Assembly: GCA_947628675.1 (NCBI GenBank)
Contig: CANRAR010000003.1
Coordinates: 11,114 to 75,113 of the forward strand
Origin: an uncultured Clostridia bacterium
GTDB taxonomy: Bacteria; Bacillota; Clostridia; Christensenellales; Borkfalkiaceae
DNA length: 64,000 nt
Reading direction: 5' to 3'
Shown: positions 3,496 to 38,812 of the stretch, piece by piece
Layout: the number at the start of each line of letters is the position of its first letter
Numbering within the stretch: the first letter of the stretch is position 1
Notes under the pieces: model-generated
The model's input: the letters and a program-made list of their open reading frames with translations, nothing else
Database searches by the model: none
What the model was told of the DNA's origin: nothing
Made by a program: the position numbers and the translations under genes

Positions 3496-3963
3496 TCCGA
3501 GCGGACTACGCGGTCGCGGCGCGCTATACGCGCGATGAGGAAAGTCCGGGCATCGCAGGGCAGGACGCCTGATAACGTCAGGTGGGGGCGACCCTAAGGA
3601 AAGTGCAACAGAAATAGACCGCCTTGTATCCTCTTTCGCCTTTAAGGGCTCCCGAAAAAGATTGCGAAGCAAGATTTTTTGGGAAGAGGAGAAGCAATCG
3701 AACGAAAATTGCTCTTTGCGTGAGCGAAGAGCAGGAAGTGAGATTTGCTTCGACGAGGCAAGGATGGAAAGGCGAGGTAAGAGCTCACCGACGGGACGGT
3801 AACGCCCCGTGCCATGTAAACCCCGTCCGATGCAAGTTTGGGATCTTCTCACATAGGGTTGCCCGCCCGGGGAGATCCGTGAATAACGCTGGAGCCTATC
3901 GGTGACGGTAGGCGTAGATAAATGACCGCGCTCGACAGAACCCGGCTTACAGGTTCGCTCGTA
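3496..3963 (+). ncRNA. rnpB: RNase P RNA, bacterial type A, with expanded P12
   Basis: Conserved blocks: GAGGAAAGTCCGGGC (3537-3551), AGTGCAACAGAAA (3602-3614), GGTAAGAGCTCACC (3776-3789), ACAGAACCCGGCTTAC (3935-3950). P1 pairing 3498-3506 with 3953-3961. Extended -10 TGGTATAAT at 3479-3487. Confidence 0.9.
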
Positions 3964-3965
3964 TC

Positions 3966-4023: not shown

Positions 4024-4196
4024 GGGCTCCCAAAAAAGATTGCACAGCAAGATTTTTTGGGAAAGAGGAGCCGCAACGGAGTGCAGTTGCCCTTTGCCTT
4101 TGGGCGAAGGGCTGAAAGCGAAGTTTGCGGCGACGAGGCTTACAGGTTCGCTGTTCCGCATTTTGCGGGGCGGGCGTGGATATAAGCGGACTTTAC
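4024..4196 (+). repeat. Copy of the P12-like dispersed repeat (4024-4139) fused to a second copy of the rnpB 3' end plus hairpin (4138-4196)
   Basis: 4024-4139 runs parallel to rnpB 3646-3759 (GGGCTCCC-A-rich-GATTGC..GCAAGATTTTTTGGG-AAGAGGAG ... CGACGAGGC). 4138-4196 repeats 3945-4018 (GGCTTACAGGTTCGCT ... GCGGGGCGGGCGTGGATATAAGCGGACTTTAC). Confidence 0.75.
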
Positions 4197-4231
4197 TTGT
4201 CAAGGGCGCGGGAATTTGGTATAATCAAAAT

Positions 4232-5074
4232 ATGGAGCAAACATCGGAAAATCAAACCGCGGAGCAAAATGAAATTCGGGCGAAGGCGGAGGAGTGCCTG
4301 CGCAAAAAATTCCATAAGGCGATCTTTTCCAAATTCACGAAGGCCGTCGTCACCTATAAATTGTTGGAGCCCGAAGATAAAATTGCCGTCTGCATTTCGG
4401 GCGGCAAGGATTCCATGCTCATGGCAAAACTCTTCCAAGAGTTGCAGCGCCACCGCAAATTTCCCTTTGAACTAAAATTCCTCGTCATGGATCCCGGGTA
4501 CAGCGCGGAGAACCGCGCCCGCATCGAAAAAAACGCCGCGCTGCTCGGCGTACCGATTTCAATTTTCGAGACGGACATCTTCGCAAGCGTGTACCCCGTG
4601 GAAAAATCGCCGTGCTACCTCTGCGCGCGGATGCGGCGGGGCAATCTCTACGCCAAGGCAAAATCGCTCGGGTGCAACAAAATTGCGCTCGGGCACCACT
4701 TCGACGACGTCATCGAGACCATTTTAATGGGCATTTTGTACGGCGGGCAGGTGCAGACGATGCTGCCCAAAGTGAAGAGCGAAAATTTCGAGGGGATGCA
4801 ACTCATCCGCCCCATGTACCTCATCCGCGAGAAGGACATCATCGCGTGGCGCGACTACAACAAACTGGAATTTTTGCGCTGCGCTTGCAAATTCACCGAC
4901 GGAAGATATGAGGACGGCAAGCGCAAAAAGGTGAAGGAACTCATCGCAAATCTTGCCAAGGACGACCCCGAGATCGAGCAGAATATTTTTCGGAGCGTGG
5001 AGAACGTGAGCCTTTCCATGGTGGTGGAATACAAGGATAAAAACGGCGTTCGCCACCGCTTCGACGAGGAATAG
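4232..5074 (+). CDS. ttcA: PP-loop ATPase, tRNA 2-thiocytidine synthase TtcA family
   Basis: SGGKDS PP-loop, CYLCARMRRG and GHHFDD motifs. Start taken at ATG 4232, in frame within track ORF 3998..5074. The upstream 234 nt is repeat DNA. TGGTATAAT -10 at 4217-4225. Confidence 0.85.
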   Translation: MEQTSENQTAEQNEIRAKAEECLRKKFHKAIFSKFTKAVVTYKLLEPEDKIAVCISGGKDSMLMAKLFQELQRHRKFPFELKFLVMDPGYSAENRARIEKNAALLGVPISIFETDIFASVYPVEKSPCYLCARMRRGNLYAKAKSLGCNKIALGHHFDDVIETILMGILYGGQVQTMLPKVKSENFEGMQLIRPMYLIREKDIIAWRDYNKLEFLRCACKFTDGRYEDGKRKKVKELIANLAKDDPEIEQNIFRSVENVSLSMVVEYKDKNGVRHRFDEE

Positions 5075-5424: not shown

Positions 5425-5699
5425 AAGATACGCTCGCCCGCGCCCGCCGCGCTCTGCGCGACGGGCGCGGGTTCGGTATGAGGGGAAGGAAGGGGAGAGG
5501 GGGGAGCGGGGAGCGGGAAGGAAGCAAAAGCAACCTCTCATTCGGAGAAAAACTCCGCATATCATAGGTCGCCTTTCCTGAAAGCCATAAGGAAGGCTCC
5601 CATGAGGGGGCGAGAGAGGAAAGCGCGCGGGGAGGGGGTAAGATACGCTCGCCCTGCGCCCGCGGCAAATGCCGCGGGCGTAGGGCTCGGTATGAGGGG
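5425..5699. repeat. Cluster of short dispersed repeats: R1 (AAGATACGCTCGCC...CGGTATGAGGGG) at 5425-5485 and 5640-5699; R2 (CTCCGCATATCATAGGTCGCCTTTCCYGAAAGCCATAAGGAAGGCTCCC) at 5553-5605
   Basis: The same sequences recur elsewhere in the window (R1: 6743, 11051, 40368, 42496; R2: 43309-43360). Confidence 0.75.
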
Positions 5700-6013
5700 C
5701 GGGGCGGAATGGCGCGGGCGATAAATTTTGCGGAAAATCTTGTAAAATTTGTGCAGCTGAATTCGGCAAACAATGTCCACCAAAAATAGAGATTTTTTAT
5801 AACTGTGTCGGAGCAATACTCGATTCGTTAAGCAAAAGAGAAGCCTGAAATGAAACATAACAAAAGGCCGTTCATCGAAAGCGAGAGGATTTATTTTATA
5901 TATGCGAGGTTCGGAAAATGAAATCTAATTTGGTAAAATGACGCAAACCTCTTTGATATCGGGAAAAAATGTGATATAATAAAATAGATCGGTAATAGAA
6001 TCGAGGTATTCAA

Positions 6014-6346
6014 ATGCGCTTTTTGGGTAACAAAACCAGAATGTTAAGCAATATTCAGTCGGTAATAGAAGAGAATAATAGCATAAATCTTGATGTGCCT
6101 AACAATATTGTAGCACTATGCCCGAATTGCCATTGTCAAATTCATTTAGGAAGTCGCCAAGCAAGATTGAAAATTTTAAGTGAATTGTATGTAAGGAATA
6201 AAGCGAAATTGCTCGCATTGAATCCTGGCTTAACATTGTCTGTTTTAGCCGCGTATTACAATATTGGGTTGGGGGAGGAAGAAGAACGGGATTGGTTGAA
6301 ACGAGCAGAAAAAATCGTGTCCGAAAAGAAGTATTTTCACGGCTAA
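6014..6346 (+). pseudogene. Remnant ORF joining a DNA-methyltransferase-like N-terminus to the C-terminal half of an HNH nuclease motif
   Basis: MRFLGNKTRMLSNI resembles adenine-methylase N-termini. NNIVALCPNCHCQIHLG is the distal half of an HNH motif, and the proximal catalytic His block is missing. Lies in an AT-rich patch (~5780-6450). Confidence 0.4.
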
Positions 6347-6573
6347 AAGTATGAATCGAAATGAAATACAAAATAGAGATATAGAGAAATTCAACGGTAA
6401 AAAAACAGGATTGAATTTGAAAAACAAATAGATGAAAGGGATGAAAGCATTTGTTGCGCCGCCGCGGCTCATAGAGCCGCGGCGGCGCGTAGTATGTGGG
6501 GGGCAAGATGAGCGGCGCGGCGGTGTCCGCGCCGCGGGGCATTGGTAGAAACAGGAGAGAACCCCCTACCCTA

Positions 6574-6659
6574 CCCTCCCCCCTTAAAAAGGGGGGAGGC
6601 AAGAGAGGGCGATTGCCCCTCCCCCCTTAAAAAGGGGGGAGGCAAGAGAGGGCGATTGC
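6574..6659. repeat. Perfect tandem duplication, 2 x 43 nt
   Basis: CCCTCCCCCCTTAAAAAGGGGGGAGGCAAGAGAGGGCGATTGC occurs twice back to back (6574-6616, 6617-6659). Each unit contains the hairpin CCCCCCTT-AAAAA-GGGGGG. Confidence 0.9.
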
Positions 6660-6677
6660 CGCGGTGGCGTTTGGATG

Positions 6678-7544
6678 TTATGCGGCGGGAGTGTTCTCGT
6701 CCGAGGTGGGCTCCTCCGCTTGAGAGAGGGGTTCGGCGGGGGAAGATACACTCGCCCCCTTCGTGGCATACTTCGTCGCTTCGCTCCTCGTGCCGTCCTT
6801 AGTCGAAAATGGTGCGGACGGGGCGGTATGAGGGGCTGTGAGATTCTGCGCGGCGGGCTCCTGCGTTGCGGCGGGCTTCTTCGCGCCAACAAGTTTGAGG
6901 GCGGGGATCATGAGGCCGCCCAGGGAGTTCCCCAAGATGACGAGCCAAATGAAGAGGAGCGCTTCGCCCGAGGCGATGCCCGAGGCCGCGAAGTAGAACA
7001 TATCGGCGATGGAGTGCTCGTAGCCGCTCAAAATGAAGGCGGGTATGCAGAACACCACGCCGAGCGGCGTTTTATGGTTGCGGTAGATGTCAACGGCGAG
7101 AAAGACGAGAATGCCGCAGAAGAACGCCCTGACGAGCGTCTGCCACCATTCCTGCGATTGCAGTTTGCCGTCACAGAGCGCAAACGCCGCGTCCTTCAGC
7201 GAGGGGACGGCGGCGGCGAGCAGGTACCCACACGCCACGGTGCCGATGAAGTTCCCGAGGAGCCCCAACAGCATGACGGAGATGTCCTCTTTGGAGTGTT
7301 TTTCGAGCACATAGCCGATTTTGCCCGTGTACAGGGAGAAACCCTTGATGCAGATGCATAGCAGCGCCGTGCAGAAGAACACCGCGCCCACGTATTTGCC
7401 GATGGGGGGCATCTCGCCATAGCAGGCGAGGAACACCGCCCCGCCGATGGAGATGAGCGCACCCGCGAGGAAGCCGTCGATGATCTTTTTGAGAATGTCG
7501 AGCACGGTTGCCTGCGCGCCGCCCTTTGTTTGCCGCTCTTTCAT
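6678..7544 (-). CDS. Formate/nitrite transporter (FNT) family membrane protein
   Basis: GYEHSIADMFY (FNT signature-like) and six hydrophobic segments. Start at ATG 7544 (MKERQTKGG) with RBS AAAGGAG. The track ORF extends further upstream into repeat element A. The last ~65 codons run through repeat DNA. Confidence 0.85.
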   Translation of the reverse strand: MKERQTKGGAQATVLDILKKIIDGFLAGALISIGGAVFLACYGEMPPIGKYVGAVFFCTALLCICIKGFSLYTGKIGYVLEKHSKEDISVMLLGLLGNFIGTVACGYLLAAAVPSLKDAAFALCDGKLQSQEWWQTLVRAFFCGILVFLAVDIYRNHKTPLGVVFCIPAFILSGYEHSIADMFYFAASGIASGEALLFIWLVILGNSLGGLMIPALKLVGAKKPAATQEPAAQNLTAPHTAPSAPFSTKDGTRSEATKYATKGASVSSPAEPLSQAEEPTSDENTPAA

Positions 7545-12529: not shown

Positions 12530-13939
12530 TTATTCTTCGGGGGCGGGGAGCCAATCGCCCACGATCATGAGGGGGAATTGAATGGGGCTTGTGGAGTAGG
12601 GCGCATACCATGTGACCGTGCAGATATTGCCTTCCAACGTATAATTGCCTGTATAGATGTAGCCCGTGTAATAACTCTGATCGGAGTAGGTGACTGTAGC
12701 GGCGACGGTGTTGAATTCCTCCATGGAGGAGCAATCAGTTCTCGAAATTTTGACGCTTGAACTTGAAAAGGACTTCTTCGCCGAGAGACCTATTTCATCG
12801 TTGTACCTGACGTCGAGGAGCAAACTCGATACCTTTTCATCATTGTCAAATTCAATGGTAAGGCGTTTATAGATAAGTTTTTTTGCCTGTTCTTTGATCT
12901 CTGCGATGTCTTCTTCAAGGGACACCATCTTGTCAAGTTTTCCGTCAAGAAGCGCTTTTTCTTGTTCTTCCATAAGATCGGCGGCCTTTTCTTCGAGTTC
13001 TATATAATCGTCGCTCATATATTCCCAAGTAAATTTATCGGGCTCTTGATCGTGGGCGGTCGGGGAGACGTAGGGCTCTCCAAAGATTCTTTCTACCGTC
13101 TTTTTATCCGCGCCGAGTTCTATTTTCATAGCATTTTCGAGAGTAAGGCGGTCGCGGGATCCGCCGAGAAGAGTAACGGGGATAGCAATCACGAGGATGA
13201 CGATGTACAAAAGAAAGACGCCGAGTGCTGCAATGCGCACCCAATCGTGGGTTATTTGTTGAGTATGGTTGTGTTTCGCAAGCGCGAGAGAACGCGCGGT
13301 CTCCTGTATGCTGATGACGGGGATGTCTGCCTCATAGATGGGGTCGGATTTGCCGTAATAGCCTGTTTCGAGCTTTTCGCCGAGGGGAAGGGTGAATAGA
13401 CCTAGAAGAGCCGCGGCAAATTCCGAGGCAAATGCAAGCCATATGATGACGGGGACGAGAATCCCCCAAATCCAAGTAGTCGGATTGGTTTCCCCATATA
13501 GCGCATAGACATCATAGGGTTTGGGCGCCGTCAAAATGGGCAGGGCGAGTACATGGAACAAGATCCCGCCAACGAGCAAGAGGGCAGCGAGAAAGCAACC
13601 TATTATCGTTCGGGTGCACAACTTTTTGCGCTCTTGGCCAAGCCTTGCGGGGTTCCAATCGGAGAGCGAAGGGCTCTGAAATCCCCTGACGATACCGACG
13701 ATAATGCCAATGATGCCATAGAAGGGGATCCCGCCGAATAGATAGCCCGTAATGGCCTTTCTGCGTGAGATCCAATTTTCCGTCTTTTTTGCGAGTGCCA
13801 CGTTGGCGGCATCGGGCTCCGCGGCGGGCTCGGGATCATATACGGGCGAGGGCGCGGGAGATTGCATCGGCGCGGGGGCGCCGCAGTTCGGACAGAACTT
13901 GCTATCGAATTCCGTCCCGCAATTTTCACATTTGTGCAT
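12530..13939 (-). CDS. Zinc-ribbon, multi-pass membrane protein (paralog 1)
   Basis: MHKCENCGTEFDSKFCPNCGAPAP zinc ribbon, Pro-rich linker, several TM helices and a soluble C-terminal domain. Start at ATG 13939 with a GGAGG RBS. Confidence 0.75.
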   Translation of the reverse strand: MHKCENCGTEFDSKFCPNCGAPAPMQSPAPSPVYDPEPAAEPDAANVALAKKTENWISRRKAITGYLFGGIPFYGIIGIIVGIVRGFQSPSLSDWNPARLGQERKKLCTRTIIGCFLAALLLVGGILFHVLALPILTAPKPYDVYALYGETNPTTWIWGILVPVIIWLAFASEFAAALLGLFTLPLGEKLETGYYGKSDPIYEADIPVISIQETARSLALAKHNHTQQITHDWVRIAALGVFLLYIVILVIAIPVTLLGGSRDRLTLENAMKIELGADKKTVERIFGEPYVSPTAHDQEPDKFTWEYMSDDYIELEEKAADLMEEQEKALLDGKLDKMVSLEEDIAEIKEQAKKLIYKRLTIEFDNDEKVSSLLLDVRYNDEIGLSAKKSFSSSSVKISRTDCSSMEEFNTVAATVTYSDQSYYTGYIYTGNYTLEGNICTVTWYAPYSTSPIQFPLMIVGDWLPAPEE

Positions 13940-23941: not shown

Positions 23942-25585
23942 TTATTTCAACGCGATGCCTTCCTCAAAGTAGGCGAGTTCGCGGCGGTACTTGCGCCAAA
24001 CCTTACGTTGCTCGTTCCGTTTCGCAAGGTAGGCGTTTTTCTGCTCGATATATGTTTGTTTTTGCAAAATAAAGGCGCGCTTCAGTTCTTTTACCGCTTT
24101 CGAATGTCGGGGGTGTCTTGCGCCGTAAACGGCAAGCGAAAGTTTTTCTCCTTTATTTATCTGCGCACCTGCGGCAGAATAAAACGCGACGATATATGTA
24201 GCATAGATAGGCAATGGAACATAGTGAACAAGTATCCAACGCGGGGGCATAAATACAAAAAAGAACATGATGCCGCAGCCAAGGAGTACGATACCAAAAA
24301 CCGATACCGTCCAAAACATCGGCGCATTGCTCCAAGTGCGTTTGCTTTGCCAATTGAATTTTGGTGCCTTCTTTTTTTGGTACTCAGATCCCAAAATGCC
24401 GCCGAGAACAACTGTAAGTATACCGTAACAAAGGAAGAAGATCCATAACGCGGGAGGGAAAGTTTCATCACCTTCTAGACCTTCTATATATAGGGGGATC
24501 AAAAAGCCGATAAGAAAAATCAACGGAAAAATAACTCCCGCAAATATCATAAGCAGATTTCTCGCTTTTACGTGTTTGGCAATTTTATCCTTCATCTTTT
24601 CCGAACACTTTGCTTCCGGATATTGCTTGATTTTCGGCTTTCTCGGCTTTGTCGGCTTGACCAACTCTTTCCATTCGGGCTTTGTGGGCGGCGTTAAATC
24701 GGCGCGGCGTTCGGCCTTGCGCTGTTTCGCTTCCTCCACGGCGGCGGGGAAGAGTTTGGGCGAAAATTTTTGCAGGAGAACTGCACCTGCGGAGCACAAT
24801 CCGAAGAGAAGCGCAAACACGAGGACGCAGACGGGCCCCGCGTCGGGAGAAGTGATCTCATCGTTCACCGTGCCGCAGAGAATGCACCCGAGGAGAAAAT
24901 CGATAAAGTAGAAGAGCAGAATGCCCCAATCGAGGAGGGTGCAGATGCGGAGATTTCCGATTTTCTTGGCGCGCAGGGGAATATAGAGGCGGAAGGCGAG
25001 CGCACAGGCGGCAAGGACTATGCCGAACGAGGCGAATACGACGAGCGCGATGCAGAGATTTGCGATGTCGTTTCCGCCCGAAGAACCCATCATTTCCCCG
25101 AAGAGATCCGCCTCCCCGCCGACGCTCAAAGCGGTGTTCTGATAGATGCTGCCCGTGCTCATGCCCATGACCGAGGAGACCGAGCCGAGGAGCATCAAAA
25201 AGAGCAACACAGAGAAGAGGGCGAAGAGGGCAGCCGTCGCATAGGGGAGCAAGGATAAAAATTTTACAGCCGCGGGCGAAACAGTCGTTCTTTCCGCCAC
25301 AGAACCCACGCCATAACGGTTGTTATTCCCGCCATAATGGCCGTTTCCGCCATGCTGCCCGTTCCCCTCGTCATCCCGAGTGTTTCCCCTGTCATCCCGA
25401 GCGTAGCCGAGGGATCCCGTCTGCTTTCCCGCGCCCTTCAAAGCGCAGCCGCATTCGGGGCAGAACTTATCCGTGGGGGAGAGTTTCGCGCCGCAGTTAG
25501 GGCACGCCTCCAAGGGCGCGGGGGCGCCGCAGTTGGGACAGAACTTGCTCTCAAATTCCGTCCCGCAATTTTCACATTTGTGCAT
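23942..25585 (-). CDS. Zinc-ribbon, multi-pass membrane protein (paralog 2, double zinc ribbon)
   Basis: MHKCENCGTEFESKFCPNCGAPAPLEACPNCGAKLSPTDKFCPECG, a Gly/Asn-rich linker and many TM helices. Start at ATG 25585 with a GGAGG RBS. Confidence 0.75.
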   Translation of the reverse strand: MHKCENCGTEFESKFCPNCGAPAPLEACPNCGAKLSPTDKFCPECGCALKGAGKQTGSLGYARDDRGNTRDDEGNGQHGGNGHYGGNNNRYGVGSVAERTTVSPAAVKFLSLLPYATAALFALFSVLLFLMLLGSVSSVMGMSTGSIYQNTALSVGGEADLFGEMMGSSGGNDIANLCIALVVFASFGIVLAACALAFRLYIPLRAKKIGNLRICTLLDWGILLFYFIDFLLGCILCGTVNDEITSPDAGPVCVLVFALLFGLCSAGAVLLQKFSPKLFPAAVEEAKQRKAERRADLTPPTKPEWKELVKPTKPRKPKIKQYPEAKCSEKMKDKIAKHVKARNLLMIFAGVIFPLIFLIGFLIPLYIEGLEGDETFPPALWIFFLCYGILTVVLGGILGSEYQKKKAPKFNWQSKRTWSNAPMFWTVSVFGIVLLGCGIMFFFVFMPPRWILVHYVPLPIYATYIVAFYSAAGAQINKGEKLSLAVYGARHPRHSKAVKELKRAFILQKQTYIEQKNAYLAKRNEQRKVWRKYRRELAYFEEGIALK

Positions 25586-26192: not shown

Positions 26193-26456
26193 ACAAAAGC
26201 GACGACGAAGAGGAGTAACCCGAAAAACGCCTTGTTCAGTGAGCGGGCAGAGTGCGAACCCCGCAGGACGCTTCGGGCGAAAAACACTTCCGAGCTGCCA
26301 CCCGAAAGAGATCGAGTAGGGAGAGCCGCCGCCCTGCGTTACGGGGCAGCCCCTTTGCGGGGGAAAAAGGGATTGCCTTTGGGCAATAAGTTAGGTGGCA
26401 CCGCGGATACAGCGCTATCCGTCCTGATGAAAAAAGGACGGGCGGCGCTTTTTTCG
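26193..26456 (+). promoter_or_regulatory. T-box riboswitch leader, probable Asn (AAC) specifier
   Basis: T-box sequence AGTTAGGTGGCACCGCGG at ~26389-26406. Terminator arms GCGCTATCCGTCC / GGACGGGCGGCGC followed by TTTTTT (26412-26455). Candidate specifier loop GAAA-AAC-A at ~26279-26286. Confidence 0.8.
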
Positions 26457-35791: not shown

Positions 35792-35823
35792 GAGAAATGG
35801 CGGATCTACAAAACCTCCGCATA

Positions 35824-35852
35824 TTGACAAGCATATCGCTTTGTGCTATAAT
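35824..35852 (+). promoter_or_regulatory. Perfect consensus sigma-A promoter at the left edge of the AT-rich island
   Basis: TTGACA (35824-35829), 17-nt spacer, TATAAT (35847-35852). A second TATAAT at 35944-35949 lies closer to the ORF. Confidence 0.6.
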
Positions 35853-35971
35853 TCTACTAATCGTAGAGTTTTATTGTGTGGCGCACGGAAAACGGGCAAG
35901 ACCACTCGAAAAGAAGTAGGTTTACTTTTTCGGCAAAAAAAGCTATAATGAGCCTGCACAGGAGGACATTT

Positions 35972-37846
35972 ATGGGTATTTTTAGTAAAAAGCACAGTAT
36001 CGGAAAAACGATTGCCGAGCTTCGCAAATCAAAAGGTTGGACGCAGGCGGAGCTTGCGGAAAAGTTGCAGGTCAGCGATAAAGCGGTCAGTAAATGGGAA
36101 AAGGATAACGGCGCGCCAAGCATTGAATTTTTCCCCGCGATTGCAGAACTTTTCGGTGTGAGTATCGATTACATCATGACGGGGAAAGAACCAGAAAGGG
36201 AAGTCATTACGATTTCCAAAGCCGAGCTTTGCGCCAAAAATGACGATCCAGCCATGCTCGACGGTATCGATATCAATCATAAAGACGAGCAAGGAAAGTC
36301 GCTTGTAGATTACATTCTGCAATATCAGAGTTTTAAGGTCTTTGTAAAACTCTGCGAATCCCAAAAGGGAAATATCGCCAAATTTCCAATTCTCGATGCA
36401 ATCAAGCTGTCGATTTTAACAAATCGTCTTGATTTACTTCGTGGCGAACAATTTGAGGTTGAGATAAGGCATTATCTGCGTTGGAAGTTTGAAACCGAGG
36501 AAGAACTTTTATCATTATTGCCCGAAGCCGAAGAATCAGGGTTTAATGATAGAGAATCCAAAACGCTATGTATTTTAACGGATGATATTTTTAAGACGAT
36601 TGTCTGTGACAAGAGAATCAGCGAAGATACGTTAAATAAAATATTAGGCAAACAACCTAATCGGCAATGCGTATGGTATCATACATTTCCATATTTGATA
36701 CATCAGAGTTATTTGAATAAAGAGGATAAAATGTTGCGCAGACTATTGACTCTCTCCGTTGAGAACAATCAATACGCCTATGATAACATGAAATTGGTGC
36801 GCAATAGATATGATGGCGGATTGAATTACACACCAAATTTCTTTTTTATGGCGGCGTATAACTACAAGGGGCATGGATTAGTTCGTATTTTGGAAGAAAC
36901 CATTAAGCTCGCGCTCGAAAGAGGCGATTTCGCGCTTTTTAAGGAGTTCGACGACATTAACAGAGCGATTCAAGCATATTACGATTTTAAGCCGTATATC
37001 GCTTCCGAGTACGAGATCCGCATGGCAAAATTAAAGGCGGACAAGTCTGTATCGCAAGATGAGTTGATAGTTCAATCAACCATTCACGACGGAATCATTA
37101 ATATTGACGAATTGCTTGCTACAAAAAATTTGCCGCTCATCAAGAAAGCGCTCTCAACCTACGATATTCATCCAATCGAGCCGCTTTGCCGAATCTTCCA
37201 AAATAAGCAATGGCGAGCGCTATTTGAATATGCCGTAGATAGCAAAAACGATAGTCTTGCAAGGGCTGTTATGAAGAATGACGAAAAAGGGATGGAGAAA
37301 GAGATCGCCGCTTTGTTTTTACGAACTGTCACGAGGAGCGGATATCCGAGTGTCAACAACAAACAATTCGTTGTCAGAAAAGCGAATAGGTTCAAAACGA
37401 ACGAGGACTATCATGCGAGCGATAATTTGAAGGTAGAGTCAATTGTGGAATATCTCAATTTTTATCGTCAGCAAATTATTTTTGATTATTCTTTCGAAGA
37501 AGAAAAAATCAAAGCCGTCAACGAACTGACGAAAGAATATTTTGAATCCGAACTCAAAAAAGGCAACACGGAAATCGTCATCATCAAGCTGTGCGTTCGG
37601 TTGGAAGCAATCCTTCGTTCATCGTATCATTACGAAGGCGACTTTTCGGAAATGCTCGATAAGTATTGCTCGCAGCACGGACAAGAGGACGACGGATGGG
37701 GATATAATCGAGAAGCCAAATTTGTAAAATATCTTCAAAAACTTCGGATGTGCCGCAATAGTATCGTCCACGCCGAAAAGAAGAAAGATATGCTTACCCT
37801 TGAAGAAATTCAATATTGTATCGATTATATCTGCAATTTGAAATAA
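35972..37846 (+). CDS. HTH(XRE) / ankyrin-like / helical protein with a C-terminal HEPN-like Rx4H motif (624 aa)
   Basis: Start at ATG 35972 with a CAGGAGGA RBS. N-terminus GKTIAELRKSKGWTQAELAEKLQVSDKAVSKWEKDNG is an HTH_3 sequence. DINHKDEQGKSLVDYILQY is ankyrin-like. C-terminus LQKLRMCRNSIVHAEKK has R-N-S-I-V-H at nt 37754-37771. AT-rich codon usage unlike the neighbouring genes. Confidence 0.7.
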   Translation: MGIFSKKHSIGKTIAELRKSKGWTQAELAEKLQVSDKAVSKWEKDNGAPSIEFFPAIAELFGVSIDYIMTGKEPEREVITISKAELCAKNDDPAMLDGIDINHKDEQGKSLVDYILQYQSFKVFVKLCESQKGNIAKFPILDAIKLSILTNRLDLLRGEQFEVEIRHYLRWKFETEEELLSLLPEAEESGFNDRESKTLCILTDDIFKTIVCDKRISEDTLNKILGKQPNRQCVWYHTFPYLIHQSYLNKEDKMLRRLLTLSVENNQYAYDNMKLVRNRYDGGLNYTPNFFFMAAYNYKGHGLVRILEETIKLALERGDFALFKEFDDINRAIQAYYDFKPYIASEYEIRMAKLKADKSVSQDELIVQSTIHDGIINIDELLATKNLPLIKKALSTYDIHPIEPLCRIFQNKQWRALFEYAVDSKNDSLARAVMKNDEKGMEKEIAALFLRTVTRSGYPSVNNKQFVVRKANRFKTNEDYHASDNLKVESIVEYLNFYRQQIIFDYSFEEEKIKAVNELTKEYFESELKKGNTEIVIIKLCVRLEAILRSSYHYEGDFSEMLDKYCSQHGQEDDGWGYNREAKFVKYLQKLRMCRNSIVHAEKKKDMLTLEEIQYCIDYICNLK

Positions 37847-37857
37847 GGAGAAAAACC

Positions 37858-38616
37858 ATGAATAAATATCAAGAATATCTCTTAAAGGGGATTTTATCAT
37901 CCAATTTTCTTTTTTATCGGTGCTGTCTCATTGGGGAATTCAGTAATGCTAAAAAATTTTATGGCAAATTTGACAAAGATAACGATACTTTCACAATTAC
38001 GCAAGATGATGACATTAACCTTGTGGAATATAGTTTAATTATATGGAAAAAAATCGATTTTATTGAAAATGTTTATATCTGGAAAAACAAGCAGTGGGAA
38101 AAAGTAGCAAATACAGAAATAGAACTTACAAATTCTACGGGCAAAGAGAGTTTTCCCTGTTACCGCATCGACGTTGATTTTCGCAATAGGATAGATAAAC
38201 TTCGCTTTACTTTCAAAGGGGGGTTGGCAGATGATTACATTCTGAAATTGCAATATGTCGAAGCCGATAAAGAAGCATACTATGCGGAACAGGCAAAAAC
38301 AGCCCGTGAAAATCTTATTAAGGCTGCGGCAATCAAGCATTCAACGGGAAATGATTTGGTTAACATCTATTTTCAACCGTGTTGCGACGAATACGAACGG
38401 GCGGAAATTTCTTTATACCATGACGGTCAAATGCTTGCGAAATACAAAGTTGAAGACGGCGCGTATTTCAAATCGATCGGCGGTCTTGCTTATGGAGCCT
38501 ATGAATATATTGTAAAACAATTTGGCAAAAATGATAAATTGCTTTTAGAAACCGAGAAAATCAAATTTTCTATCAGTCGCCCGAATTATGGCGGGGAGCA
38601 CATAGTTGTCATTTAG
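37858..38616 (+). CDS. Hypothetical protein (252 aa), operon partner of the HTH-HEPN-like gene
   Basis: ATG 37858 lies 11 nt after the upstream stop, with an AAGGAG RBS. I recognise no motif. AT-rich like its partner. Confidence 0.65.
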   Translation: MNKYQEYLLKGILSSNFLFYRCCLIGEFSNAKKFYGKFDKDNDTFTITQDDDINLVEYSLIIWKKIDFIENVYIWKNKQWEKVANTEIELTNSTGKESFPCYRIDVDFRNRIDKLRFTFKGGLADDYILKLQYVEADKEAYYAEQAKTARENLIKAAAIKHSTGNDLVNIYFQPCCDEYERAEISLYHDGQMLAKYKVEDGAYFKSIGGLAYGAYEYIVKQFGKNDKLLLETEKIKFSISRPNYGGEHIVVI

Positions 38617-38674
38617 TCTATGTGACAGGTGCTATTCCTCATATAGAGCATGATTGTGTGAGGAGGTGATGTTC

Positions 38675-38734
38675 ATGAAAGCCATTTTTAAGGCTTTGAT
38701 GCGACGATATAAGGAGTGCGTCAAGCATGAATGA
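38675..38734 (+). CDS. Possible 19-aa cationic peptide sORF (MKAIFKALMRRYKECVKHE)
   Basis: AGGAGG RBS 8 nt upstream of ATG 38675, at the right edge of the AT-rich island. No other support. Confidence 0.2.
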   Translation: MKAIFKALMRRYKECVKHE

Positions 38735-38784
38735 GTTTGGCTCCCGAGCGGCACCGCGGTTCACCTCCTCTTGCAGTAATGCAA

Positions 38785-38812
38785 CAAAAAAGGCGGCTTT
38801 TGCCGCCTTTTT
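38785..38812. terminator. Bidirectional terminator (A-run, AGGCGGC-TTTT-GCCGCCT, T-run)
   Basis: Read directly. Lies between the island and the convergent radA. Confidence 0.65.

Follow-up and report, generated by a model that had tools for sequence, protein, structure and literature searches.

We analysed 64,000 nucleotides (nt) of DNA from an uncultured Clostridia bacterium (hereafter the window) and describe an AT-rich island in it, from 35796 to 38785, that holds a compact cassette: gene 1, whose product combines an N-terminal helix-turn-helix (HTH) domain with a C-terminal HEPN domain; gene 2, which encodes a partner modelled as two β-sandwiches; and S, a structured RNA element at the 3′ end that encloses a short open reading frame (sORF). 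The features are listed in Table 1. At 0.397, the GC content of the island is the lowest of all 3-kb intervals in the 64 kb, and between 35750 and 38750 the local GC content falls from about 0.60 to 0.33–0.45. The GC content at third codon positions is 0.45 in gene 1 and 0.36 in gene 2, as against 0.76–0.83 in tag, radA, ispDF and three more neighbours. A preliminary description of this DNA had noted by eye both the sharp drop in base composition and a codon usage differing from that of the neighbouring genes, and computation agreed on both counts. The same description had reported a perfect TTGACA-17-TATAAT promoter at the head of the island, two co-directional open reading frames (ORFs) 11 nt apart, each with a ribosome-binding site (RBS), and no integrase, transposase or MNT-type gene. 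These statements also stood: the promoter matches the consensus at 12 of 12 positions, the two RBSs are AGGAGG and AAGGAG, and no integrase, transposase, recombinase or MNT gene lies within 10 kb of the island. The AAGGAG of gene 2 overlaps the stop codon of gene 1, and the two genes are probably translationally coupled.

Table 1. Features of the island and its 3′ border, in coordinates of the window
Feature	Coordinates	Strand	Basis or remark
Promoter P1, TTGACA-17-(TG)TATAAT	35824..35852	+	12/12 consensus, TG extension
Operator-like palindrome, TCTAC-TAATC-GTAGA	35853..35867	.	Immediately 3′ of the −10 box
Second promoter-like site, TTTACT-17-TATAAT	35921..35949	+	10/12 consensus, in the 5′ leader of gene 1
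Gene 1, 624 amino acids (aa): HTH, ankyrin (ANK)-like region, helical domain, HEPN	35972..37846	+	ORF, AGGAGG RBS
XRE-type HTH, residues 14-68	36011..36175	+	Pfam HTH_3, E 4e-16
Weakly ankyrin-like helical repeats, residues 83-160	36218..36451	+	Ank matches in relatives; paired short helices in the AlphaFold2 (AF2) model
Central helical domain with small β-hairpins, residues 161-455	36452..37336	+	Family not matched
C-terminal HEPN domain, residues 486-624	37427..37843	+	PF18735 HEPN_RiboL-PSP profile, E 3e-4 (domain alone)
Predicted catalytic motif, R592-x2-R595-N596-x3-H600	37745..37771	+	Invariant in homologues
Gene 2, 252 aa: two FN3/Ig-like β-sandwiches and a linking helix (residues 138-157)	37858..38616	+	AF2 model, pLDDT 92
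S, 5′ hairpin P1	38617..38647	+	Minimum free energy fold
S, core	38655..38775	+	Stem GAGGAGGUGA (38660-38669) x UCACCUCCUC (38761-38770), enclosing hairpin AAAGCC-N8-GGCUUU
19-codon sORF (MKAIFKALMRRYKECVKHE)	38675..38734	+	Within S; GGAGG 5 nt upstream, Shine-Dalgarno sequence (SD) buried in the stem
Terminator hairpin	38792..38812	.	Stem-loop and T-run on the + strand; A-run upstream for the − strand; apparently shared with convergent radA, whose terminator is at 38792-38804

The C-terminus of gene 1 is, by profile, a HEPN-superfamily domain. Its best profile match, PF18735 (RiboL-PSP-HEPN), covers the helix with R-x4-H and the preceding helices; of 41 orthologous domains taken from different species, 37 match it too at E ≤ 0.1 (best 4.6e-8); one member, P0102, was the only one to score above the gathering threshold (28.5 vs 28.4 bits). 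Secondary and weaker matches of the relatives were to HEPN_Apea (10 of the 41), DUF4145, HEPN_MAE_28990, HEPN_Cthe2314 and AbiU2. None of the four motif residues, R592, R595, N596 and H600, varies among 63 full-length homologues or among these 41 domains, and this invariance persists in relatives down to about 30–40% identity. The preliminary description had read R-N-S-I-V-H at nt 37754-37771 and proposed a HEPN-type effector from it; the motif is there, and the profile together with the invariant R-x4-H supports the assignment to the superfamily. The AF2 model has five helices over residues 488–621, plus a small hairpin insert, with a pLDDT (the model's per-residue confidence score) around 90. 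Nothing significant was returned when the HEPN alignment was used in a profile search of the PDB; the sole PDB sequence match was the motif helix of ApeA (9hxj), which is near-identical in pattern (LRRIYRTRNNIVHSGK vs LQKLRMCRNSIVHAEK), the overall similarity being non-significant (E 3.9). RiboL-PSP-HEPN domains have been described as fused to an endoRNase L-PSP domain or in an operon with ParB (Anantharaman et al. 2013, PMC3710099), and no L-PSP or ParB domain occurs in gene 1, gene 2 or their neighbours. Since this context is lacking and the window protein scores below the cut-off of PF18735, we file the domain under the HEPN superfamily and not under that family.

The remainder of gene 1 conforms in large part to what had been proposed for it. 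The N-terminal XRE-type HTH matches HTH_3 at E 4e-16 and also Phage_CI_repr and PHROG repressor families, and scans of gene 1 against PADLOC, PHROGs, NCBIfam and Pfam yielded HTH matches alone; in Foldseek comparisons it gave target-normalised template modelling (TM) scores of 0.8–0.9 to the DNA-binding domains of P22 c2, ImmR and SinR. It is the most conserved region of the protein, with a mean pairwise identity of 0.73. The single ankyrin-like repeat of the preliminary description is weakly supported: the window protein itself has no Ank match at E ≤ 0.1, and the Ank_2, Ank_4 or Ank_5 matches that 5 of 24 relatives have here, with E values of 1e-3 to 1e-4, fall short of the cut-offs or close to them. 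The long helical stretch had been said to hold no recognisable motif, and residues 161–455 indeed match nothing in Pfam or PDB profile searches. This central domain is the fastest-evolving folded part of gene 1 (identity 0.47–0.49) and is undetectable in distant relatives. No tetratricopeptide repeat (TPR) profile matches gene 1. The whole AF2 model has a mean pLDDT of 87, and Foldseek against the PDB found matches to the HTH only. Homologues of 600–650 aa number 483.

The gene 2 product had been described as devoid of recognisable motifs and as a novel partner, and it proved to belong to a new family, tightly linked to gene 1, for which Pfam, NCBIfam, PHROGs, PADLOC and PDB sequences offer no match. 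Searched exhaustively with HMMER, 1.84 billion representative proteins yielded 346 representative clusters, nearly all of 130–340 aa and mostly of 220–290 aa, with no obvious fusions to other domains; no signal peptide was seen by eye in gene 2. Foldseek searches of the PDB and BFVD with the gene 2 model returned generic tandem FN3/Ig receptors and phage FN3 proteins at TM about 0.3, so that no function can be assigned from them. The two sandwiches differ in conservation: mean pairwise identity is 0.38 in the N-terminal domain, the most variable folded part of the system, and 0.68 in the C-terminal domain. Together with the middle domain of gene 1, the N-terminal domain of gene 2 makes up the most variable folded parts, a sensor-like pattern.

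The two genes travel together. We collected loci, designated here by L numbers, through both proteins, and genes 1 and 2 are adjacent in 93 of 100 informative ones, typically with a gap of 10–13 nt; co-occurrence of homologue pairs was a check proposed at the outset. When gene 2 served as the query, a HEPN ORF stood directly upstream in 41 of 48 species-representative loci (of the seven exceptions, two are cut by contig ends), and when the HEPN domain was the query, gene 2 stood directly downstream in 52 of 54 informative metagenome loci. Most of the hosts are uncultured gut Clostridia, among them Christensenellaceae, Ca. Coproplasma, Scatosoma and Protoclostridium; some are Bacilli of the Acholeplasma, Anaeroplasma and Izemoplasma types, and other phyla contribute single bins. 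The flanks vary from genome to genome, the cassette occupying unrelated chromosomal sites, and in most hosts its GC content is lower than that of the flanks (for example, 0.33 vs 0.51, and 0.37 vs 0.58–0.63). Its composition marks the cassette as foreign to the host, and its recurrence at unrelated sites points to horizontal mobility, in line with the horizontal acquisition suggested earlier. Large serine recombinases adjoin it in L061, L062, L071 and L120, both contigs from IMG/VR being among these, and in three other loci the next gene is of a defence type, namely DUF4238, TIR_2 or HNH.

In several loci one of the two genes is damaged or missing. In L071, on a contig at 182x coverage, a serine-recombinase element splits gene 2 after codon 6, and gene 1 with its motif is intact; in L101 gene 1 is likewise intact with its motif, and gene 2 is absent. 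A truncated gene 1 stands beside an intact gene 2 in L017, L030, L040, L042 and L044. In L039 (6560-7744) gene 2 is fused, apparently by a deletion, to the beginning of the middle domain of gene 1, in an ORF of 394 aa from which the HEPN domain is lost. The inserted element of L071 occupies positions 5438-7180 of that locus, with the break at MNKYQE|. The start of gene 2 might act as a recombinase attachment site, because it is nearly invariant across the family (M1, K3, Y4 and Q5).

We next consider the control region. The operator-like palindrome directly behind the −10 box of promoter P1 recurs across the family: of 73 loci, 60 have a CTAC-N3-9-GTAG site in the 220 nt that precede gene 1, compared with 0.8 loci in shuffled controls, and most of these sites are CTAC-N5-GTAG located 107–125 nt 5′ of the start codon of gene 1. 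A related CTAC-N7-GTAG, about 72 nt upstream of that codon, was seen in several other loci. The interval 35820-35971, some 150 nt that run from the −35 box up to the start codon, is 89–97% identical in L007, L013 and L122, compared with 78–87% for the coding genes, and the second promoter-like site in the leader is kept in the same three loci and partly in L123. A palindrome just after a consensus promoter, in an operon that encodes an HTH protein, fits autorepression, given that the palindrome is family-wide, that the leader is more conserved than the coding sequence and that no part of the protein is better conserved than the HTH. The self-regulation assumed in the preliminary description thereby gains backing, and we infer that the gene 1 HTH binds CTAC-N5-GTAG.

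The DNA directly after gene 2, 38617-38775, is predicted to fold into a 5′ hairpin followed by a long-range stem around a second hairpin, and this is the S element. Its long-range stem pairs the SD of the sORF (GAGGAGGUGA) with UCACCUCCUC, 90 nt downstream. The fold z-scores were −3.4 to −4.9. In the model-fitted alignment, 22 of 26 base pairs have changes on both sides, although this alignment leans towards the covariance model; 89% of its cells are paired, compared with 38–50% when the partners are slid. A covariance model, run in two rounds over the roughly 1 Mb of loci fetched via the two proteins, identified 15 distinct loci with S, the window among them, always 35–220 nt 3′ of the gene 2 stop codon, and no significant match elsewhere in that DNA. 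S lies on the same strand as gene 2 in 6 loci and on the opposite strand in 9, and several opposite-strand copies have, by eye, a −10-like box upstream. No family of Rfam 15 matches S, and none matched at E ≤ 10 across the island. Copies of S were located at L018:1851-1970, L123:6649-6768, L032:7220-7341(-), L044:7809-7931(-), L021:3498-3588(-), L050:7737-7832(-) and L038:1421-1509(-), and in L064, L067, L081 and L075. A hairpin of differing sequence occupies the position of hairpin P1 in L018, L123, L032, L044, L021 and L050.

The 19-aa sORF had been noted earlier, and it is present with a GGAGG RBS; what had been missed is that a conserved structured RNA, or small gene of the cassette, encloses it. 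Its location within this conserved element argues that it is more than a chance ORF. The frame of 19 codons and the stop position are kept in four distant lineages (L018, L123, L032 and L044), but the frame is shortened to 9 codons in L007, L013, L122 and L064, which include the closest relatives of the window, and the stems persist there. RNA structure is therefore a better-supported constraint on S than the sORF. The possibility that S mimics the 3′ end of 16S rRNA was considered and rejected; the 3′ arm is UCACCUCCUC here and CCGCUUUGC or UUCCGUCUUG in other copies. We also rejected the sORF as a remnant of gene 3 (see below), since the resemblance seen by eye at the C-terminus failed in alignment against shuffled controls (z < 3).

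S is one of several occupants of the slot after gene 2. Among 100 loci, S is present in 15, a gene of about 180 aa, gene 3, in 42, neither in 43, and both in none. The gene 3 family comprises 657 proteins with an invariant E and R-x4-H; it has no Pfam match, and a profile search of the PDB gave nothing significant. Examples lie at L119:12718-13266 and L121:12681-13223. Its assignment as a HEPN domain was not accepted, the likeness being at the level of the motif: hhalign aligned it to the gene 1 HEPN profile over the motif helix alone, with a probability of 24%. In L058 (2977-3924) and L109 (3046-4182) a DEDDh/RNase T-like exonuclease gene directly follows gene 2 and may be another occupant of the slot; the L109 protein has a weak Pfam match (E 1e-4), and the L058 protein shares its FDIE motif. 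In L015, an ORF of 172 aa (4027-4545) begins 27 nt 3′ of gene 2; its product is helical, with ACELYLKSLL and R-x6-H, and it is unrelated to gene 3 by BLAST and has no Pfam match.

HEPN RNases are effectors of many immune and toxin systems. On balance, we take the cassette to be a mobile, autoregulated HEPN RNase conflict module, most likely of the abortive-infection or toxin-like kind; we infer the toxin or defence role itself from the sequence features described above. XRE HTH and HEPN domains normally act as dimers, and the gene 1 protein would presumably dimerise as well. Its HTH would bind CTAC-N5-GTAG and hold expression low, and the paired HEPN domains would form a metal-independent RNase site, silent until a trigger arrives; the triggered domain would then cut cellular or invader RNA, and growth would stop. 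Gene 2 may bind gene 1 through its conserved C-terminal sandwich, its fast-evolving N-terminal sandwich providing a surface for trigger recognition or control. The slot 3′ of gene 2 could hold an optional regulator, the S RNA with its SD-sequestered sORF here and the protein of about 180 aa with R-x4-H elsewhere. More specifically, and only tentatively, the cassette could be a modular anti-phage system, in which a latent HTH-HEPN RNase is coupled to an Ig/FN3-like sensor, and a swappable third part, S RNA or mini-HEPN, sets or relieves its activity. If this is true, S would be a new class of RNA regulator or antitoxin for HEPN nucleases, unrelated to the abiF motif.

Some observations weigh against a HEPN RNase conflict module. 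The window protein reaches 7.1 bits against PF18735 as a whole and 21.1 bits as the domain alone, with a gathering cut-off of 28.4, and Foldseek with the whole gene 1 model placed no HEPN structure in its top 50, which held matches to the HTH only. In the window and in most loci examined, the flanks are housekeeping genes and not defence islands. A search of 50,697 sequenced phages and 72,556 plasmids turned up no homologue of either protein, and IMG/VR yielded only two distant ones. The roles assigned above to gene 2 and to S are guesses.

A type II toxin-antitoxin pair, in which gene 1 is a HEPN toxin with its own HTH and gene 2 the downstream antitoxin, seems to us an unlikely description of the cassette, though much of the architecture would suit it: the 11-nt gap, the invariant HEPN motif and the autoregulatory operator. 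The loci with a damaged gene 1 and an intact gene 2 (L017, L030, L040, L042, L044 and L039) are also what one would expect of such a pair if loss of the toxin is harmless. However, the reverse is also seen, gene 1 being intact where gene 2 is destroyed (L071) or absent (L101). Gene 2 is moreover a confidently folded double β-sandwich (pLDDT 92), whereas typical antitoxins are small and partly disordered, and its most variable part is a whole domain. We therefore prefer a role for gene 2 as sensor or co-factor to one as antitoxin, because gene 1 stays intact where gene 2 is split or missing and because a whole domain of gene 2 evolves fast.

We find it doubtful that gene 1 is an ordinary transcription factor, with a non-catalytic HEPN-like end used for dimerisation or ligand sensing, and gene 2 the regulated cargo with some role outside conflict. 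The HTH and the operator are the best-conserved features, the flanks are housekeeping genes, the HEPN score in the window is below threshold, and non-catalytic HEPN domains exist, as in MtlR and some families listed in PMC3710099. In the table of that paper, however, non-catalytic HEPN families are usually without the motif, and R592, R595, N596 and H600 are invariant here. The distribution of the cassette also argues against it: the cassette is patchy, AT-rich and mobile, it sits beside recombinase, TIR or DUF4238 genes in several loci, and its third slot is swappable.

That the cassette is a remnant of prophage immunity, a CI-like repressor with a leftover structural Ig-like protein, is very improbable. 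The HTH does match Phage_CI_repr and PHROG repressors, the FN3/Ig domains that gene 2 resembles are frequent in phage tail proteins, and the two distant relatives on IMG/VR contigs lie beside integrases, but in many genomes genes 1 and 2 form an isolated unit amid housekeeping genes, each ORF being intact and constrained, the 50,697 phage genomes gave 0 matches, and the Foldseek matches of gene 2 are generic (TM about 0.3). An RRNPP-like sensor, with gene 1 as an HTH and helical-repeat receptor for the sORF peptide in the manner of Rgg/SHP or ComR/ComS, was suggested by the HTH and long helical region, by the low-ranking Foldseek matches to ComR, PrgX and Rgg2 and by the nearby gene for a partly hydrophobic 19-aa peptide (convergent in 9 loci), and was rejected as scarcely credible because the similarity is significant over the HTH only (query-normalised TM 0.09–0.13), no TPR profile matches, and the sORF, which only 15 of the 100 loci have and which is shortened to 9 codons among the closest relatives of the window, has an SD that is buried in a covarying stem.

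We compared the proposed conflict module with systems already described. RiboL-PSP-HEPN proteins are distantly related to AbiF/AbiD (family: PF18735; PMC3710099); relative to them, gene 1 is a fusion with XRE HTH, ANK-like and novel helical domains and has a β-sandwich partner. ApeA is a HEPN antiviral tRNA anticodon nuclease (bioRxiv 10.64898/2026.01.26.701840) and, like gene 1, joins a large N-terminal regulatory region to a C-terminal HEPN domain, but it is a single gene with no HTH and no partner, and forms a deoxydinucleotide-activated, doughnut-shaped oligomer. In AbiF(Cd)/RCd22 of Clostridioides difficile, an Abi_2 HEPN toxin is neutralised by a structured non-coding RNA (PMC12373285). 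Both that system and the cassette have a Clostridial HEPN-type effector, an adjacent conserved structured small RNA and a location in mobile DNA, and negative self-regulation, predicted here for the cassette, would be a further shared trait. S could work as RCd22 does, but it is a different motif. Unlike AbiF(Cd)/RCd22, gene 1 has no Abi_2 domain, no abiF RNA motif is present (no Rfam match), and S lies downstream, in either orientation, holds an sORF and occurs in only about 15% of loci.

The cassette also resembles RnlA-RnlB, LsoA-LsoB and HEPN-MNT pairs in being a two-gene operon with a HEPN RNase. In RnlAB the HEPN toxin gene rnlA comes first and the antitoxin gene rnlB lies downstream. 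The cassette differs from these pairs in that an MNT gene is absent, that similarity to RnlA or RnlB is not detectable, and that gene 1 stays intact in at least two natural loci that dispense with gene 2. S is reminiscent of type I toxin mRNAs (the hok, ibs and fst classes) in that a long-range 5′–3′ stem sequesters the SD of its short, partly hydrophobic sORF, and in having convergent copies with their own −10 box. Unlike those of type I toxins, the S peptides are of 15–19 aa with several charged residues, the sORF is shortened in several lineages where the stems persist, and no antisense RNA partner came to light.

HEPN conflict modules are already known as a kind. The preliminary description had not recognised the combination as a named system, and none emerged: in PADLOC-DB v2.0.0, gene 1 matches only over residues 6–115, which comprise the HTH, gene 2 matches nothing, and we found no paper describing an XRE-HTH/ANK-like/novel-domain/HEPN architecture. 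Because nothing beyond the HTH was matched in Pfam, PADLOC v2, Rfam 15 or the literature, four parts appear to be undescribed: the architecture of gene 1, the β-sandwich partner family, the optional protein of about 180 aa and the S RNA. How each HEPN RNase stays silent and then fires is the main question for most HEPN systems, and here four separable parts, an operator with its HTH, a variable middle domain, a variable Ig-like partner and a swappable RNA or protein, are packed into less than 3 kb. The cassette is so far confined to uncultured gut Clostridia and Mollicutes-like Bacilli, in which very few defence systems have been studied. If active, it would add to the defence catalogue a new system, two new protein families and a new, covariation-supported structured RNA motif that Rfam 15 lacks; should it have no nuclease activity, it would stand as a well-documented case of a HEPN motif kept for another purpose.

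The surroundings of the island in the window can be described briefly. It is flanked on one side by asnB, glnA, dut, trmB, an Fe-ADH gene and tag, and on the other by radA, ispDF, a gene for an S4-domain protein and rpoBC. No target-site duplications and no terminal, direct or inverted repeats of at least 7 nt were found at its ends, and when an empty site was sought through the exact Tag protein, the cassette was present in every contig found. Elsewhere in the window, low-GC patches lie near 12600 and at 24000-24700, and one at about 5600-6500 contains a 110-aa ORF (6014-6346, + strand) with CPNCHxxxH that may be a fragment of an HNH nuclease. Of the Rfam families, only RNase P RNA class A (3498-3965, + strand, 275 bits) and the T-box leader (26193-26429, + strand, 101 bits) attain their gathering scores in the window.

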